This document shows, piece by piece, positions 1 to 64,000 of a DNA stretch of 64,000 nt. This stretch comes from an uncultured Chloroflexia bacterium (GTDB lineage Bacteria > Chloroflexota > Limnocylindria > Limnocylindrales > CSP1-4). The stretch covers positions 335,338-399,337 of the forward strand of contig CAVUZY010000007.1 in assembly GCA_963746075.1 (NCBI GenBank), written 5' to 3'. How positions within the stretch are numbered: position 1 is the stretch's first letter; the number at the start of each line of letters is the position of its first letter. A program made the position numbers and the translations under genes. The notes beneath the pieces are model-generated. The model did not search any database. It worked only from the letters and a program-made list of their open reading frames with translations, and had not been told where the DNA came from.

Positions 1-119
1 GCCGGTACGAATCGGAGTTCGGGTCGGCGCTCGGGTCGGCGTGCGGTCGGAGATCATCGAGGACGGGTCGCTCTCGAACGGCGTTGGTCGGCCGTGGGAC
101 GGGCCACCGGCAACCAGCG

Positions 120-8813: not shown

Positions 8814-10637
8814 TCAGCCGGCCTCGAGCAGGATCGGGCGGACGATCCCCCACGAGTTCCAGAGCTCGGTCAGGCCGTCGGCCCGCCGGCCGAGCAGCGT
8901 CACGAGCTCGCCGAGGGTCAGGCCGCCGGCCGCTCCGGCGACGTACTCGTCGGCGGCGACCCGGACGTCGCGCAGCAGCTCCTGCGTCTCGGCCTCGGTC
9001 GGCCAGCGCCGGACGCGCATCGGATCGAGGCCGGCGTACCCGACCGCGAGGGACAGGTCGCGCTGGCTCGGCAGGCGGTCGTCGACCCAGCCGCCGAACC
9101 CGTCGAACCGGAACCCGAGCGAGGAGAGACCGGCCGCGATGTCGCGGTTCTGGGCCTGGTTGAACGGACCCCAGAACGGGTGCTCGAGCGGGAAGTCGAA
9201 CGCCACCGCCTCGATCGAGCGGGCGATCAGGGCCTCGGCCAGGCCACCGAGCTGGGTCTGCCAGAGGCGCCGCGCATCGGCGTCGTCACCCGCCAGCCGG
9301 CCGACGGCCTGCTGGAGGGCGTCGTGTTCGCCACGCAGGATCCGGAGGATCAGGGCATCCTGGCCCGCCTGCGAGTGCATCCTCGTCGAGAACTCGAACT
9401 CGTCCTCCGGCTCGGGGGTCGCGGCTGCGATCCGGCCCTCGCCGGCGTCGCCGTCCTCGGTCGTGGCGTCCGGGTCGTTGGCGGATCGTTCGGCGGCCTC
9501 CTCGAGGGTCCGGGCCTCGTCGCAGTCCGCGACCGCGTCGCGCGCTGCGGTGCAGGCCTCGTCGGCCCGTTCCGACGTGATCCGGGCGGCATCCGCTTCG
9601 ACGGCCAGCCGCTCCAGGGCGGGCACGAGGGCGGCCGCGGCGGCGCGGTCCCGCTCGAGTGCCGAGCTCGCTTCGCGGGTCTCGTGGTTGATCCGGTTGA
9701 TCTCGGCCAGCCAGGCGCGTGCGCCGGCCTCGACGTCGTCGCGGGTCTTGGCCTGGTTGCGCGCTTCGCGGAACCGTTGCTGGGCCTGCTCCTTGGCCGA
9801 CCGGACGGCGCGCGGATCGGCCAGCTCGGAGACGGCCTCAGCTCGGGCGACGTGCTCGTCGTAGGTTCGCTGGGCCTGGCGCAGCGCGTCCGCGGCGGTC
9901 GCCGCACCCTCTCGCGCCCGGGTCGCGACGGCGCAGCGCTCGTCCGCGACGCGGCGCTCCTCGGCGCACGGACCGTTCGCCGCGGGAGTTGCCGCCGGGG
10001 TGGCTGGTGGTGCGGGTGGGGAGGCCGGGCCCGGGCCCGTACTCGTCGCGCCTCCCGCGGTTGCGCCTCCCCCAGTTGGACCTCCCGCCGGAGCGCCGCC
10101 ACTCGGCGAAGCGCCCGCGGCGGTCGGGCCCGCGGCGGGCGCCGCCCCCGTGGAACCACCCCGTCCGGTCGGTCGGTCGCCGATCGCAACGTTTGACCCG
10201 GAGGAGCGAGCGGCCGGGGTGCCGCCGGCTGCCGAGGCCGCGCTGCCGCTCGACGTCGCCATCGCGGCGGGACGGGCCGCGCTCGCCCGGAAGGCGGCGG
10301 TCAGCGGGTCGGGCTCCATCGACATCGGGACCGCGACCATCCGAACAGGTGTTCCAGGCGCAGCGGACCCGGCCTTCACGCGTCGGCCGGTCGCGGCCGG
10401 TTCACCGGTCAGGGCAATCTCGTCGGTCGTGCGGCGATCGCCCGGTCCGCCACGCGCCGGCCCGGATCCCTCGGCCAGGGTCGCGGCCATCCGGGAGTGG
10501 ATGGCGTTCGGCGAGACGGTCACGCGGACCTCGCGAGAGGCGGGGGGACGGGAGCGGAGGACCTCGATCAGCGCAGCGCCGCTCGCGACGCCGAGGACCA
10601 GCCCGAGCGCGAGAAACGCAAACTCACTGGCCGTCAA
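8814..10637 (-). CDS. Membrane-anchored coiled-coil protein of unknown function
   Basis: TTG 10637 is preceded by AAGGAGGA at 9-nt spacing. It has an N-terminal TM (FAFLALGLVLGVASGAALIEVL), a Pro/Ala/Gly-rich linker, about 180 aa of Ala/Arg/Glu-rich helical region and about 190 aa of C-terminal globular region. I recognise no family. Confidence 0.7.
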   Translation of the reverse strand: MTASEFAFLALGLVLGVASGAALIEVLRSRPPASREVRVTVSPNAIHSRMAATLAEGSGPARGGPGDRRTTDEIALTGEPAATGRRVKAGSAAPGTPVRMVAVPMSMEPDPLTAAFRASAARPAAMATSSGSAASAAGGTPAARSSGSNVAIGDRPTGRGGSTGAAPAAGPTAAGASPSGGAPAGGPTGGGATAGGATSTGPGPASPPAPPATPAATPAANGPCAEERRVADERCAVATRAREGAATAADALRQAQRTYDEHVARAEAVSELADPRAVRSAKEQAQQRFREARNQAKTRDDVEAGARAWLAEINRINHETREASSALERDRAAAAALVPALERLAVEADAARITSERADEACTAARDAVADCDEARTLEEAAERSANDPDATTEDGDAGEGRIAAATPEPEDEFEFSTRMHSQAGQDALILRILRGEHDALQQAVGRLAGDDADARRLWQTQLGGLAEALIARSIEAVAFDFPLEHPFWGPFNQAQNRDIAAGLSSLGFRFDGFGGWVDDRLPSQRDLSLAVGYAGLDPMRVRRWPTEAETQELLRDVRVAADEYVAGAAGGLTLGELVTLLGRRADGLTELWNSWGIVRPILLEAG

Positions 10638-10923
10638 AGCCCGCAGTCCTCCTTGGCCGCCACCTGCGACCGGCGCCACACCCCAGCGGAGCGTAGCTGC
10701 GCACTCGTCCGAGGTCAACTCGCCGGGACCCCGTCCGGACGGCCCATCCGGCCGGTGGCATGAGCGTGGGGCGGCCCGGCCGACGCGACCGTCGTGGCCC
10801 CCGGCCGGGCTTTGCGAAGGCCGAGGCGCGGATGGTAGATTGGGGGCACCGGCCGAGGCCCTCGGTTCGTGCCGGCTGCGCGCTTCCCGGATCGTCCACT
10901 CCACTGAAAGGCACGTCCTCGAC

Positions 10924-12759
10924 TTGGCGCTCGACTCCTCCCAGGAATTCCTCGTCCAGCCCGTCGATGCCTCCTGGCTCCAGTGCAACATCGAGTGCCA
11001 GGAGGCGTGTCCGGTCGGGACGAACTGCCGCGGCTACCTGAACCTCGCTGCCGAAGGGCGGTTCGAGGAGGGCTACATCCTGTCGCGCGAGCCGAACCCG
11101 GTCGCCGCCATGTGCTCGTACGTCTGCTCTGCGCCATGCGAGCGGGCCTGCCGCCGCGGTGACATCGATCGGCCGCTCGCGATCCGGGCGATGAAGCGGT
11201 TCCTCGTGGAGTGGCACGAGGCGTCGGGGATCCCCGACGTCATGCCCCAGATCACGCCCCGCGGCGAGAGCGTCGCGGTCGTGGGCGCCGGCCCGGCCGG
11301 GATCGCCGTCGCCCGTGAGCTGGCGATGAAGGGCATCCAGGTCTCCGTCTTCGACAGCCTGCCGTACGGCGGCGGGACGATGCTCATCGGGGTGCCGGCG
11401 TTCCGCCTCCCGCGCGAGGCGATCGAGATGGACGTCCGTCTCGTCGAGCGCCTCGGGGTCACGTTCCGCTTCAACACGACGATCGGCAAGGACATCACGA
11501 TGGAGGAGCTCCAGCGGGACTACGACGCCGTCGCGCTGACTGCCGGCGCGATGGATCCAGTCGCCCTCGACATCCCGGGCGGCGATCTCGACGGCGTCGA
11601 CTACGGGGTCGACTTCATGAAGAAGGCGAACCTCGGCCAGGAGCTGTACGTCGGCAAGGACGTGGTCGTGATCGGCGGCGGCTACACCGCGATGGACTGC
11701 TCGCGGACGAGTCTCCGCCACGGCGCGGAGCGGGTCTCGATCGTCTACCGCCGGACGCGGTCCGAGCTGGTCGTCGACGAGGAGGAGCTCGGCGAGACCG
11801 AGCGCGAGGGTGTCCGGATGGAGTTCCTCGCCAGCCCCGTCGAGGTCCTTGGCGAGGACGGCCACGTCACGGGCGTCAGGTTCATCCGCAACCGCCTGGG
11901 CGAGCCGGACGCGTCCGGTCGCCGATCGCCGGTCCCGATCGAGGGCAGCGAGTTCGTCATCGCGGCCGACGTCGTCATCCCGGCGGTGTCGCAGGCGGCG
12001 GACCTGACGTTCCTGCCGGTCGAGCCCGCGTTTGAGATCAACCGCGGCCGGGTCAAGGTCGACCCCGCGACGTACGCCACCAACACCCGCGGCGTGTTCG
12101 CCTGCGGCGACTTCGTGACCGGCCCCACGACCCTCATCGAGGCCGCCGGCCACGGCAAGAAGTGCGCCTACGCGATCGATCGCTATCTGTCGGGCCGGAC
12201 CGACGTGACGGTTACCCCCAACGTCAAGATCACGAGCTCGTGGCGCCACGACATGCCCGAGTTCTACGACGTCCTGCCGCGCCAGCACATCCCGATGGCG
12301 CCGCTCCAGGTCCGGATGCCGTCAACCGATCCGGAGGTCAACTTCAACACCCCGGTCGAGTACGGCTACGACGCCACGGCCGCGGTCGCGGAGTCGACGC
12401 GCTGCCTGATGTGCAACTTCAACATCTGGTTCGACCCGTTCCGGTGCGTCCTGTGCGGCGCCTGCGCCGACGTCTGCCCCGAGGGCGTCATCCACATGGT
12501 CGACGTCAACCAGCTCAAGACCGAGGGCCTCCTGCCCGAGATCGAGGAGTCGTACGGCTGGGAGAACGGGGCGGCGATGATCCTCGACGAGGAGCGCTGC
12601 ATCCGCTGCGCGTTGTGCGTCAAGCGTTGCCCGTTCGACGCCATTACGATGGAGCGGTTCGAGCTCCAGGAGATCTCGACCGACGGGCGGCTCTACAAGG
12701 AGTCGTACCGGGATGCGCAGCTTGCCGGGACCCCCGGCGTCGCAGGAGGAGCCCGGTGA
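10924..12759 (+). CDS. GltD/NfnB-like FAD/NAD(P)H oxidoreductase fused to a C-terminal 2x[4Fe-4S] ferredoxin domain
   Basis: N-terminal Cys clusters CQEACPVGTNC and CSYVCSAPCERAC. Dinucleotide folds VAVVGAGPAGIAVA and VVVIGGGYTAMDC, plus FACGDF. C-terminal CVLCGACADVCP and CIRCALCVKRCP. The stop overlaps the cyt b GTG. Start is uncertain (TTG 10924 proposed); the upstream part of the 919-aa ORF is antisense to the neighbouring gene. Confidence 0.8.
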   Translation: MALDSSQEFLVQPVDASWLQCNIECQEACPVGTNCRGYLNLAAEGRFEEGYILSREPNPVAAMCSYVCSAPCERACRRGDIDRPLAIRAMKRFLVEWHEASGIPDVMPQITPRGESVAVVGAGPAGIAVARELAMKGIQVSVFDSLPYGGGTMLIGVPAFRLPREAIEMDVRLVERLGVTFRFNTTIGKDITMEELQRDYDAVALTAGAMDPVALDIPGGDLDGVDYGVDFMKKANLGQELYVGKDVVVIGGGYTAMDCSRTSLRHGAERVSIVYRRTRSELVVDEEELGETEREGVRMEFLASPVEVLGEDGHVTGVRFIRNRLGEPDASGRRSPVPIEGSEFVIAADVVIPAVSQAADLTFLPVEPAFEINRGRVKVDPATYATNTRGVFACGDFVTGPTTLIEAAGHGKKCAYAIDRYLSGRTDVTVTPNVKITSSWRHDMPEFYDVLPRQHIPMAPLQVRMPSTDPEVNFNTPVEYGYDATAAVAESTRCLMCNFNIWFDPFRCVLCGACADVCPEGVIHMVDVNQLKTEGLLPEIEESYGWENGAAMILDEERCIRCALCVKRCPFDAITMERFELQEISTDGRLYKESYRDAQLAGTPGVAGGAR

Positions 12760-14312: not shown

Positions 14313-14987
14313 ATGAGCAACTATCACGTCGAGCCGGTCGACCGGCCGAAGGCCCTCGCCCCCGAGGCGATCAAGGCGCTCCGCCGCGCCCAGGTCAAGG
14401 GCGTCTCGCGGCGCCAGCTTCTGCGCTACTCGATCGGCGGCGCGATCGGCCTCTGGCTCCTCGAGGTCACGGCAGGGACGATCGGCTTCATCTGGCCGAA
14501 CCTGACCGGCGGCTTCGGCAGCAAGGTCCGGATCGGCACTCTCGACGATCTCAAGCTCGCCAACAGCGCCCTCCCAATCAGCGATGGGTATCCGGCCTAC
14601 GTCCCCGACGCCCGGGCTTACATCGTCCTGATCGACACCGGCCAGCAGGGCTTCATCGCCGGCGAGGACACGACCGGCGACGGTCATCCCCTCAATGTCC
14701 GGGGCCTGTACCAGCGCTGTCCCCATCTCGGCTGCAAGCCGAACCCGTGCATCAGGAACTTCTGGCTGGAGTGCCCGTGCCACGGGTCGCGCTACGACCG
14801 GCTCGGCATCAAGGCCGAGGGCGCCCAGTACGGCCCGGCCGCGCGCGGGATGGACCGCTTCTCGGCCAGCGTCGACGGCGCGGGCGTCCTGACCCTCGAC
14901 ACCGGCAAGATCACCCTCGGCCCGCTGCCGGTTGCGGTCGGCCAGCCAGGCATCATCCCGCCGCGCACCCCGACCGGGTGCATCTGA
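14313..14987 (+). CDS. qcrA: Rieske [2Fe-2S] subunit with Tat signal
   Basis: Twin-arginine signal VSRRQLLRYSIGGAIG. Cluster boxes CPHLGC and CPCHGS. Confidence 0.92.
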   Translation: MSNYHVEPVDRPKALAPEAIKALRRAQVKGVSRRQLLRYSIGGAIGLWLLEVTAGTIGFIWPNLTGGFGSKVRIGTLDDLKLANSALPISDGYPAYVPDARAYIVLIDTGQQGFIAGEDTTGDGHPLNVRGLYQRCPHLGCKPNPCIRNFWLECPCHGSRYDRLGIKAEGAQYGPAARGMDRFSASVDGAGVLTLDTGKITLGPLPVAVGQPGIIPPRTPTGCI

Positions 14988-16150
14988 TGACCGACCAGAC
15001 GCCGGCGCCGATCCCCGAGGGGACCCCGGAGCCCGTGCCCGACGGAGGCGCCGAGGAGCAGCGCCTGCCGGCGACCGTTCCGCCCGCGACGCTGTCCGCC
15101 GACCGGTTCAGCGCGGTGCCGGCGATCAAGAACAACGCGGGCCTGACGCCCCAGCGCTCGGCCGGGATCGTGCGCCAGTCGGCGTCGGCCCGCTGGGTCG
15201 GCTTGCTGACCGTCATCTTCGTCAGCCTGTTCATCGTCGGCTACTGGTTCTACGAGCTCGGTGCGCCGGCGGGGATCTCGAAGGCGCGGCTCGCCGAGGA
15301 GATCGACGCCCAGCAGGTGACGGCCGTCGAGCGCGGCTACAACCTGTACGAGGCGAACTGCGCCCGCTGCCACGGGCCGGGCGGATTGGGGCCCGACGAG
15401 CCGGACGCCGCGGCCAAGGCGGCTGCCGGTCAGGGCTACATCGGGCCGCGGCTCAACGCCCAGGAGAAGCTGTTCGCCCACCTCAGCGAGGCGTATCTGA
15501 ACAACGTTCTGCTCGTCGGCGGCCGCTACGTCTGCGGCAACGCGACGTCGGCGATGCCGGTCTGGTCGGACCAGGGCAACCCGCCGGGTCCCCTGAACTA
15601 TCGCCAGATCGACGAGCTGATCGCGTTCCTGCGGGCGACCAACGAGCACGAGTACGAGGTCCGCGATCCCTCGACGAACGAGCCGATCATCGACCCGGCG
15701 ACGGGCAAGGTGAAGACGTTCACCGGCTGGCGCGATCCGAACTACAAGCCGGATCCGGCCGCGACGCCCTACCCGGCTTGCTACATTGATGCCCTGACCG
15801 GCGGCGCCGGCGGCTCGGCCGCTCCGGGTGCCTCCGTCGACCCGAACGCGCCCGTCGTCACGGTCGCGGCGCCCGATGGGTCCGCGACGACCGGCTTCAC
15901 CCCGACCACCCTCGAGGCCAAGGCCGACACCGCGTTCACCCTCGTCTTCGACAACCAGGACGCCACGACCGGTCCGCACAACGTGGTGATCAGCGACTCA
16001 TCCGGCACGGCGATCGCGATCGGCGACACGGCTTTCTTCACCGGTCCCGCGAAGCGGAGCTACGCGGTGCCGGCGCTCAAGGCCGGGTCGTATCCGTTCG
16101 TGTGCCAGGTCCACGTGTCGACGATGAAGGGCACCCTCGAAGTCAAGTAG
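14987..16150 (+). CDS. Membrane-anchored monohaem cytochrome c fused to a C-terminal type-1 copper (cupredoxin) domain
   Basis: The ATG shares one base with the Rieske TGA. TM WVGLLTVIFVSLFIVGYWFY. Haem motif CARCH with distal SAMPVW. C-terminal cupredoxin has ligand pattern GPHNV ... FVCQVHVSTM (H, C-x2-H-x3-M). Confidence 0.88.
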   Translation: MTDQTPAPIPEGTPEPVPDGGAEEQRLPATVPPATLSADRFSAVPAIKNNAGLTPQRSAGIVRQSASARWVGLLTVIFVSLFIVGYWFYELGAPAGISKARLAEEIDAQQVTAVERGYNLYEANCARCHGPGGLGPDEPDAAAKAAAGQGYIGPRLNAQEKLFAHLSEAYLNNVLLVGGRYVCGNATSAMPVWSDQGNPPGPLNYRQIDELIAFLRATNEHEYEVRDPSTNEPIIDPATGKVKTFTGWRDPNYKPDPAATPYPACYIDALTGGAGGSAAPGASVDPNAPVVTVAAPDGSATTGFTPTTLEAKADTAFTLVFDNQDATTGPHNVVISDSSGTAIAIGDTAFFTGPAKRSYAVPALKAGSYPFVCQVHVSTMKGTLEVK

Positions 16151-62365: not shown

Positions 62366-62902
62366 TCATTGCCCGCCGGCGATGGCCGCGTATTGGCGCT
62401 CGAAATCGGTGTCGACGACCTCGCCGATCTGGATCGACTGGAGGATCCCGTTTCGGTCGACGAAATAGGTCTGCGGCCGGCCGAGCACCCGGTAGGCCGC
62501 CTTGATGCGGGCGCCCGGATCGATGACCGTCGCCCACGTCCCGCCGTTCGCCGCCGCGAACGCCCGGGCGGGCTCGACCGGATCGTCGGTCAGGACGCCG
62601 ACGATCACCAGGCCGTCGGCTCCGTGCTCGGCGGCCTTGCGAGCCAGGAGCGGGAACTCGGTCCGGCACGGGACGCACGTCGGGCCCCAGAAGTTGATGA
62701 TCACCGGCTTGCCGCGGAGTGTCGCGAGGTCGAATGGCGCCCCGTCGAGCGTCGTTCCCGTGATGTTCGGAACCGGCTTGCCCTTGCCGATCTCGATGGT
62801 CGTCGCCGGGCCGCACGCAACGACGCCGAGGGCGACAATCGCGGCGACGATGAGGCGGAGCAGGGCGCCAACGAGCCGGGTCGACCGGCGCGGTGAGGTC
62901 AT
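62366..62902 (-). CDS. TlpA/ResA-like thiol:disulfide oxidoreductase lipoprotein
   Basis: Lipobox GVVAC and thioredoxin motif FWGPTCVPC. Confidence 0.88.
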   Translation of the reverse strand: MTSPRRSTRLVGALLRLIVAAIVALGVVACGPATTIEIGKGKPVPNITGTTLDGAPFDLATLRGKPVIINFWGPTCVPCRTEFPLLARKAAEHGADGLVIVGVLTDDPVEPARAFAAANGGTWATVIDPGARIKAAYRVLGRPQTYFVDRNGILQSIQIGEVVDTDFERQYAAIAGGQ

Positions 62903-62918: not shown

Positions 62919-64000
62919 TCAGCCGCCGACGGTCAGCGTGCCGGTCATCAGGGATGGATGGATCGAGCACTCGAACTTGTACGCGCCGGCCTTCAAGGGC
63001 GGCACGTCGAACGTCTTCACGGCGATGCCGGGGAAGTCCTTCATGTCGTAGACCTTCGCCCCGCCGTCGTCGAGGAAGTCGACGTCGTGGGGCGTCGAGG
63101 CGTCCTTGTTGTCGAGCGTGATCTTGAACGGCGCGTCCGCCGGGGCTGCGAGGGTTGCCTGGTCGAACTTCACGCCCGAGGCGATGATCGAGATCCCGCC
63201 CGGACCCGGTCCACCGGATCCCGGCGGCCCACCCGACGGGGCCGCGGAGCCGCCAGGCTCGCCCGAGCCACCGGCCGCGGAGCGCGGCGGGAACCAGCCG
63301 GCGTTGAGGGCGACGGACACAACGAGAAGGAAGGCGAACACCGACACGACGGTCTTCGGCCAGCCGGGCGCCGGGTCGTTCTCGAGATGGCCGGTCGAGT
63401 CGGCCCGGACGACCTGCTTGTACTCCTTGCGGGCGTCGCTGAGCCAGCCGAGCAGGGCGGCGATCGTGAACAGCACGCCGACCGCCAGGATCCAGCCGCC
63501 GAAGACGAGGCCCGCGAACAGGACGAACAGCCCGAGCGAGGCGAGGATCGGGCGGAACGACGGACCGGGCATGTGGACGCCGGGCGGGGGTCCGGGATGC
63601 TCGATCGGCGCCAGCTGCGGATGATCGCCGGCGACGTGGTCGTAGTCGACGAGGGCCTCGCGACCCCAGTAGAGCAGGCTCAGGACCAGGACGACCAGCC
63701 CGATGACGAGGGTCGGTCCGCCGAAGACGAGCCCCAGGACGAGAAGGAACGTTCCGATCGCTCCGTAGAGGGGGGCGTAGGTCGGGCCCGGCATGTGGAT
63801 CCCGGGCGGGGTCACCGGCTCGATCCGGCCCGGCCGGCGGCGGCGCGGACCGAGCCGCGCGTACTGGTAGACGACCCGGATGAAGAAGAGGACCACCACG
63901 ACGCCCATGAACACGGGCAGGAGCGAGATCAGGGCGCCCCAGTCCGGGATGACGAGGAGCTTGGTGAGATCGAGGATCCCGTTCCAGATCTGCTCGAGGA
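62919..64000 (-). CDS. Polytopic membrane protein with duplicated CtaF-like (oxidase subunit IV-like) module fused to a C-terminal cupredoxin; 5' end lies outside the window
   Basis: The frame stays open to position 64000 (...LEQIWNGILDLTKLLVIPDWGALISLLPVFMGVVVV...). Two copies of PPG[IV]HMPGP[ST][YF]xP, each followed by a TM hairpin. C-terminal PHDV...FECSIHPSLM gives type-1 Cu ligands. Confidence 0.7.
   Translation of the reverse strand, partial: LEQIWNGILDLTKLLVIPDWGALISLLPVFMGVVVVLFFIRVVYQYARLGPRRRRPGRIEPVTPPGIHMPGPTYAPLYGAIGTFLLVLGLVFGGPTLVIGLVVLVLSLLYWGREALVDYDHVAGDHPQLAPIEHPGPPPGVHMPGPSFRPILASLGLFVLFAGLVFGGWILAVGVLFTIAALLGWLSDARKEYKQVVRADSTGHLENDPAPGWPKTVVSVFAFLLVVSVALNAGWFPPRSAAGGSGEPGGSAAPSGGPPGSGGPGPGGISIIASGVKFDQATLAAPADAPFKITLDNKDASTPHDVDFLDDGGAKVYDMKDFPGIAVKTFDVPPLKAGAYKFECSIHPSLMTGTLTVGG

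Follow-up and report, generated by a model that had tools for sequence, protein, structure and literature searches.

Within the window analysed here, a 64,000-nucleotide stretch from an uncultured Chloroflexia bacterium of the order Limnocylindrales (G000:C7:335338-399337), the reading frame that crosses the far end encodes a membrane protein, referred to below as X, in which two copies of a transmembrane (TM) hairpin known from cytochrome c oxidase subunit III are joined to a type-1 copper domain (cupredoxin). Based on its domain anatomy, its homologies and its conserved place in a cta operon, we infer that X is a physical, stoichiometric member of the oxidase, and it is very probably a subunit whose type-1 copper domain faces outwards. 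With moderate confidence we favour the fuller reading that X serves the A-family (aa3-type) haem-copper oxidase of the Limnocylindrales as an accessory subunit, in which the copper domain would act as a tethered entry point for electrons. A specific copper relay from the cytochrome bc complex to the oxidase through the X cupredoxin may exist, and is put forward tentatively.

The preliminary description of the window, made from the letters alone, had reported the reading frame as open at the window edge, and the frame does continue into the next 7 nucleotides (nt), where its start ATG lies (window-equivalent 64005-64007, G000:C7:399344). With the stop codon at 62919-62921 the full extent of gene X is 62919 to 64007 on the minus strand (L004 757-1845, minus strand), and the protein has 362 amino acids (aa) with the N-terminus MELLEQIWNG. 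Read from this end, it comprises an N-terminal helix, TM1, two tandem units of an HxPGPS motif plus hairpin, TM6, a Gly/Pro/Ser linker and the cupredoxin (Table 1). The last three elements had been seen before and were found again at the residues listed there; the earlier anatomy was sound as far as it went, but it lacked the minus strand, the N-terminal amphipathic helix with TM1, and a closer cupredoxin outside the window, on the oxidase subunit II (CoxII).

Both repeats of X consist of the motif PPG[IV]HMPGP[TS][YF]xP, a two-helix hairpin and a W..E/K..Y tail, as had been described. Residues 63-126 and 136-200 align without a gap and with a score of 155, compared with 28 ± 5 for 1000 shuffles of one unit, and both repeats are strongly conserved in sets of 39 and 58 homologs. 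When X was searched as a single sequence against solved structures, only weak cupredoxin matches and neither CtaF nor COX3 were returned, so that a profile of the repeats was required. The combined repeat profile (A2), run against all solved structures, gave as its best match subunit III (COX3) of R. sphaeroides (1m56_C residues 10-65, E 3e-4), and also matched mouse COX3 (7o37_c residues 9-64, E 1.2e-3); the next matches were the C-terminal helices of the B. subtilis quinol oxidase subunit I (QoxB, 6koc_A 579-622) and the junction of the Thermus caa3 I+III fusion. In Pfam, residues 140-187 of X align with positions 78-124 of the Cyt_c_ox_IV profile (PF12270), that is, with the C-terminal hairpin of the actinobacterial oxidase subunit CtaF and its HxxPSxWP-type motif, a unit that is present twice in X; repeat 2 alone reached 27.3 bits against a cut-off of 26.9 (profile positions 80-125 of 132), and the Pfam scan of X gave no match to profile positions 1-77. 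Many X homologs in a large protein database carry a precomputed PF12270 match, and in distant homologs the motif reads PGPSPWPF, PSPWP, PPSWWP or PSWWP, nearer still to COX3 and CtaF. Judged by these profiles, each repeat is a detached COX3 TM1-2 hairpin, a unit that also forms the C-terminal half of CtaF, the COX3 identity being the more exact one.

The genes around X complete this picture. Inspection of the sequence beyond position 64000, which the preliminary description had recommended as a check, located ctaC, ctaD and ctaE upstream of X, and the operon runs on one strand in the order ctaC, ctaD, ctaE, s64, X and tlpA, with the first four genes lying beyond the window and the assembly gene ctaG (Caa3_CtaG) divergent to them. 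The ctaC product, CoxII, has COX2_TM and COX2 domains and a C-terminal Cupredoxin_1 domain (33.9 bits) and contains no cytochrome c domain. The local ctaE matches the COX3 profile only at positions 78-255 of 258; it is therefore the five-helix form without TM1-2, and TM3-7 lie in a separate gene from the X hairpins. Between ctaE and X lies s64, a conserved gene of 64 aa. Its Pfam scan gave nothing meaningful, and its profile gave one clear match, to mycobacterial CtaF (8hcr_H residues 6-51, E 1.1e-4); the idea that s64 is a third copy of the hairpin was rejected, with an hhalign probability of 39% over 19 columns.

Since s64 matches the N-terminal half of CtaF and the X repeats match its C-terminal half, s64 and X together are, by profile comparison, a split and expanded CtaF, and X is in part a member of the CtaF family. 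Actinobacterial CtaF (cytochrome c oxidase polypeptide 4; 8HCR chain H, 6HWH chain S, 7Q21 chain F) is encoded after ctaE, like X, but is a single protein of four TM helices and about 140 aa with no extracytoplasmic domain, whereas here its N-terminal half is a gene of its own, the hairpin is duplicated and flanked by two new TM helices, and a cupredoxin is fused to it. In M. smegmatis, CtaF provides TM1-2 and rebuilds subunit III together with the 5-TM CtaE (PMC8361435). Another arrangement is found in the sister family f3, in which the same operon slot holds a protein of 115 aa with one TM helix and a single hairpin and without cupredoxin (a Pfam scan of these proteins gave nothing meaningful).

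The order ctaC-ctaD-ctaE-s64-X-tlpA recurs in 11 relatives, which belong to five other genera of the family. A further 80 loci were compared, and where the contig is long enough to show the operon the order is the same in essentially every one. The position of X after ctaE is thereby kept in about 90 loci overall, and in nearly all the loci inspected X is followed by tlpA as the final operon gene.

The cupredoxin domain of X was identified by Pfam (PF13473 Cupredoxin_1; E 1.5e-10, with a score of 41.5 bits where the cut-off is 27), and in the AlphaFold2 model it forms eight strands over residues 271-360 with a predicted local distance difference test score (pLDDT) of 80-89. A Foldseek search with the full model returned cupredoxins only, with probability 1.0 to plastocyanin, amicyanin, auracyanin and a cupredoxin of N. 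maritimus (Nitrosopumilus), and the best solved-structure profile match of the linker and domain start is auracyanin 2AAN. In an alignment of 39 homologs the predicted copper ligands H307, C347 and H350 are invariant and M354 is present in at least 90%, in the pattern H...C-x2-H-x3-M. The domain has a single Cys and X has no CxxCH motif; because of the single Cys and the type-1 ligand set, we read the domain as a putative redox site and not as a chaperone site.

The membrane part was modelled twice with AlphaFold2, as part of the full-length protein (pLDDT 64.7, predicted template modelling score (pTM) 0.30) and alone with a deeper alignment (pLDDT 77.6, pTM 0.53), and both models give one and the same helix order. 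In the same 39 homologs the motif VIPDW (V19 I20 P21 D22 W23), between the amphipathic helix and TM1, is invariant, and R56-R58 are invariant columns of the Arg-rich loop RRRRPGR that follows TM1. The linker is of variable length with many insertions and deletions among homologs. The positive-inside rule predicts a cytoplasmic position for the RRRR loop and for the repeat 2 tail DARKEY, and an N-terminus that lies outside; as the number of TM helices is even, the cupredoxin would also be outside. The N-terminal HxxxPSPWP segment of COX3 lies on the matrix or cytoplasmic side, which agrees with this topology.

A paralog of the N-terminal module of X (amphipathic helix, VIPDW and TM helix) was also detected elsewhere in the genome, with 46% identity over 39 aa (G000:C4:673648-673764; L003 1117-1611, minus strand), where it heads a different small protein beside a CcsA/ResC-like cytochrome c biogenesis gene. 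The VIPDW-type module may be a reusable membrane anchor.

In addition to the copies on X and CoxII, a third fused cupredoxin is present at the C-terminus of a cytochrome c subunit of the bc complex (14987-16150). The preliminary description had aligned this domain collinearly with that of X, and the two are indeed paralogs, 44.6% identical over 83 aa (45-46% in other comparisons). It had named, as grounds for refuting its reading, that the two are not each other's closest relatives, and in this genome they are not: the closest paralog of the X domain is the CoxII domain, with 64-65% amino acid identity and 76% nucleotide identity over 260 nt. At the level of the order, however, all three domains behave as a single set that exchanges sequence. 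A tree was built from 40 domains, taken from 18 genomes across the order, and in it the cupredoxins cluster by lineage and not by host protein: in genus g1 the X domain groups with that of CoxII (support 100/96), in genus g7 all three group together (99/94), and in family f2 the X domain groups with that of cytochrome c (95/82). Monophyly by host protein is rejected in approximately unbiased (AU) tests, with p 0.0016 for the X domains and p 9e-5 for those on cytochrome c. The clearest case is genome G253, in which the three cupredoxins are 99-100% identical as protein and 98.2-99.5% identical as DNA over 331-386 bp, with the similarity confined to the domain. In G088, a short-read assembly from the same genus (L139-L141), three contig ends share 118-127 identical bases at the 3' end of the cupredoxin, as expected where a near-identical repeat breaks an assembly. 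The data from G253 and G088 suggest that gene conversion among all three copies took place recently.

The possibility that the X and CoxII domains evolve in concert continuously was considered and rejected, since the X and CoxII sets of 59 closer genomes keep largely apart, with 6 label changes over 118 rows, and the exchange is therefore episodic. Taken together, the trees point to repeated conversion or replacement of the domain among three cupredoxins that must stay compatible, which would be indirect support for, and not proof of, a functional link between them.

In light of these data, we propose that the membrane part of X would supply two copies of the TM1-2 hairpin that is absent from the five-helix CtaE, one of which probably docks on CtaE, as CtaF does; for the other, the bc complex or a second oxidase is a possible partner. 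The linker of about 35 residues would hold the cupredoxin outside, where the CuA domain of CoxII also lies. The cupredoxins of X and CoxII would receive electrons from the one fused to cytochrome c in the b6-type bc complex, or else from lipoprotein cupredoxins, and would hand them to CuA, replacing a soluble or fused cytochrome c. A further extension, which we regard as doubtful, is that complexes III and IV of the Limnocylindrales form an obligate supercomplex without any diffusible carrier, in which electrons would pass from haem c through the bc copper and the X/CoxII copper to CuA on tethered cupredoxins throughout; the recurrent conversion would then match potentials and docking faces, as in a copper wire based on self-exchange, and the X hairpins would be the bridge.

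Several observations weigh against the proposed role of X. The membrane part had been described as CtaF-like, which is borne out for the C-terminal half of CtaF only: the whole of X scores 20.0 bits with PF12270 (E 7.4e-4), under the gathering cut-off of 26.9, and repeat 1 alone has no Pfam match. A Foldseek search with the TM-only model gave nothing significant (best E 0.11), with COX3 and CtaF chains ranked at the top (E 0.1-2.6), and the pTM values of both models are low, so that the packing of the six helices is not established. In family f2, X stands beside ctaG, s64 and tlpA, with ctaD elsewhere, and does not adjoin ctaCDE. The proposal does not account for the presence of two hairpins, or of two cupredoxins on the oxidase side. 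Finally, the genome encodes at least three further cupredoxins with a lipobox (lipoprotein signal) and Ala/Pro/Ser tethers, which could be the real mobile carriers.

The last point leads to the best surviving alternative, in which X does belong to the oxidase but its cupredoxin is a port for electrons from other donors, such as the lipoprotein cupredoxins or another dehydrogenase branch, and does not partner the bc-complex cupredoxin, with no dedicated copper-to-copper bridge or supercomplex. The auracyanins of Chloroflexus are lipid-anchored, and the lipobox cupredoxins, which may be likened to them, are possible mobile copper carriers of the same style; auracyanins serve alternative complex III. 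One of the three, at C7:279665-280348, groups in the tree with the cytochrome c-fused domain, the X domain is only about 46% identical to that domain in this genome, and the bc and cta operons lie 47 kb apart in the window. Against such a port, the cytochrome c subunit already bears a tethered cupredoxin, which makes an additional mobile carrier unnecessary, and the three fused domains have repeatedly exchanged sequence. In family f2, moreover, X lies about 4 kb from the Rieske and cytochrome c-cupredoxin genes of the bc operon (L011, G133:C6:45000-58000). The absences point the same way: no COX1 was found in three genomes tested from the same family, G151 (genus g5), G187 (g6) and G327 (g176), and searches of g5 and g6 genomes returned neither X (at E<=1e-5) nor the cytochrome c-cupredoxin (at E<=1e-20), although this joint absence is a pattern among mutually related genomes and not a statistical test. 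On balance we consider an entry port for other donors unlikely.

It is improbable that X is mainly structural or bridging, as a complement of subunit III or a contact between complexes III and IV, with its cupredoxin a redundant copy of the CoxII domain. Within this genus the CoxII domain is the nearest paralog of the one on X, and in M. smegmatis CtaE and CtaF form the main contact with complex III (PMC8361435), but the domain and its ligands are conserved in hundreds of species. Furthermore, CoxII lacks the C-terminal cupredoxin in G124 (L006 2152-3063) and L084 while X keeps its own, and the X copy can therefore be the sole one on the oxidase side. Very improbable, too, is that the domain, instead of carrying electrons, acts together with the TlpA-like reductase as a chaperone that supplies copper to CuA or other blue-copper sites, or as a factor in their assembly, for although tlpA is the next gene in nearly all loci, ctaG is nearby, and cupredoxin-fold chaperones exist, with CupA (4f2e) among the Foldseek fold matches, the conserved canonical ligands and single Cys contrast with the two-Cys/Met site of CupA, a like domain on cytochrome c and CoxII has electron transfer as its natural role, and strongly conserved hairpins are typical of a stoichiometric subunit.

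Returning to the proposed reading of X as an oxidase subunit with a tethered electron-entry domain, parts of such an arrangement have precedents. The TM1-2 hairpin of the seven-helix COX3 (PF00510), with which X shares HxxxPSxxP and the helix pair, has copies at the C-terminus of QoxB (6KOC) and in the Thermus caa3 I+III fusion (2YEV), and these relocations show it to be a mobile module among oxidase subunits; unlike in X, a tandem duplicate or its joining to a redox domain is not described there. The caa3-type (A2) oxidases (Thermus thermophilus 2YEV; Bacillus CtaC) likewise have their electron donor built in, joined to the C-terminus of CoxII as in the ctaC product here, but the fused carrier is a CxxCH haem, whereas here it is a type-1 copper cupredoxin with a second copy on X. 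AcoP of Acidithiobacillus ferrooxidans is a membrane-anchored single-domain cupredoxin from an oxidase gene cluster, which is tightly bound to the oxidase and interacts with its donor (PMC4059628). It differs from X in having one TM anchor, no subunit III/CtaF module and a green copper site, and in belonging to a different cupredoxin subfamily and to the iron-oxidation chain of an acidophile. In the SoxM supercomplex of Sulfolobus acidocaldarius the blue-copper protein sulfocyanin (SoxE) replaces cytochrome c between Rieske/cytochrome b and the haem-copper oxidase (as summarised in PMC3750248); it is archaeal, and a separate single-anchor protein that acts as one carrier, in contrast to three fused paralogous domains. 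The auracyanins of Chloroflexus and Roseiflexus (2AAN, 1QHQ, 6KOL), which are among the X fold matches, are Chloroflexota blue-copper carriers with Gly/Ser-rich tethers, but they are free-standing lipid- or TM-anchored proteins and not domains of oxidase or bc subunits.

With regard to distribution, 303 loci with X were found in one scan of species-representative genomes. Among the 80 of these that were listed, all but one are titled Chloroflexota or Limnocylindrales, the exception being titled Verrucomicrobiia; the source genomes are uncultured metagenome-assembled genomes, mostly from soil. In the large protein database there are more than 2400 homologs (2406 with E<=1e-3 among 8000 candidates scored), of which the 120 best listed are 64-99% identical, and a library of 50%-identity representatives holds about 100 clusters at E<=1e-30, single-hairpin forms included. 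Automatic names of the homologs are 'plastocyanin', 'cupredoxin domain-containing protein' and 'cytochrome c oxidase subunit 4', the first and last of which are each half right for X. The earlier statement that no fusion of a cupredoxin to CtaF was known is thus wrong for the databases, but it stands for the literature, as no description of the fusion was found in open-access papers and preprints, and a 2026 genomics paper on these lineages makes no mention of the oxidase or of cupredoxins.

If the favoured reading is correct, widespread uncultured bacteria of soil and freshwater would use copper domains built into complexes III and IV where cytochrome c once linked the two, as a bacterial counterpart both of the archaeal SoxM/sulfocyanin system and of the actinobacterial dihaem bridge. 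Tandem duplication, with use as the anchor of a redox domain, would be a third fate of the mobile subunit III hairpin, and the three partner domains, with their repeated exchange of sequence, would offer a rare and testable case of concerted evolution inside one electron-transfer chain. Respiration in these organisms would be copper-dependent, which bears on their cultivation and on soil ecology. The coordinates of X and of the related features are collected in Table 1.

Table 1. Position of the features of X and of related genes and domains. Coordinates without a prefix are those of the window.
Feature	Residues	Position	Strand	Basis
Gene X, membrane protein of the oxidase operon, 362 aa		62919..64000 in window	minus	single open frame
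N-terminal amphipathic helix of X	2-18			AlphaFold2, both models
TM1 of X	23-51	63855..63941	minus	AlphaFold2 secondary structure
Repeat 1 of X, PPGIHMPGPTYAP motif plus helices 78-95 and 98-123	63-126	63630..63821	minus	translation, self-alignment, AlphaFold2
Repeat 2 of X, PPPGVHMPGPSFRP motif plus helices 152-169 and 172-197, end DARKEY	136-200	63408..63602	minus	translation, Pfam, profile matches
TM6 of X, predicted to return the chain to the outer membrane face	216-235	63303..63362	minus	AlphaFold2 helix
Gly/Pro/Ser-rich linker of X, presumed flexible tether	236-270	63198..63302	minus	pLDDT 30-45
Type-1 copper cupredoxin domain of X	271-362	62922..63197	minus	Pfam, Foldseek, ligand conservation
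TlpA/ResA-like thioredoxin-fold lipoprotein (WGPTCVPC), 16 nt downstream of X		62366..62902	minus	AhpC-TSA 4.7e-21, Redoxin 4e-16
bc-complex subunit: N-terminal TM, mono-haem cytochrome c (CARCH), linker, cupredoxin (~15851-16147)		14987..16150	plus	Pfam Cytochrom_C, Cupredoxin_1 4.8e-11
Near-identical cupredoxins of G253		L010 4246-4579, 7947-8277; L030 2219-2604		
Three lipobox cupredoxins		G000:C7:279665-280348; C4:73812-74222; C4:577040-577939		

Beyond the window, the ctaD gene of this genome falls into three frames, owing to insertions of one base each, TCG-G-ATC and ACG-C-GTG, at about 3849 and 4144 of L004 (G000:C7:401348 and 401643). A dead operon was considered and rejected as the less likely explanation, in view of the two 1-nt insertions and of the intact ctaD (542-571 aa) of relatives. 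Assembly indels are likelier, because the relatives are intact and the genome has a completeness of 76% in only 7 contigs.

Forms of the hairpin were also seen elsewhere. One genome of family f2, whose members have genomes of about 1.1 Mb, has a second open reading frame of 287 aa, with a single hairpin plus cupredoxin, shortly downstream of ctaD (G269:C6:7060-7800). In other Chloroflexota families the hairpin lies within stop-free frames of 625-628 aa in some genomes and within frames of 614-669 aa broken by one TGA in others (for example G206:C1:402547-402702 and G116:C1:806739-806894); these frame sizes would fit a hairpin fused to subunit I or lying just after it.

On the bc side, the cytochrome c-cupredoxin gene comes after the Rieske gene (14313-14987). 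The open reading frame upstream of the cytochrome b6-type genes (10000-12759, plus strand) encodes a GltD/NfnB-like flavo-iron-sulfur protein, the translation of which shows FAD/NAD(P)-binding and 4Fe-4S ferredoxin motifs.

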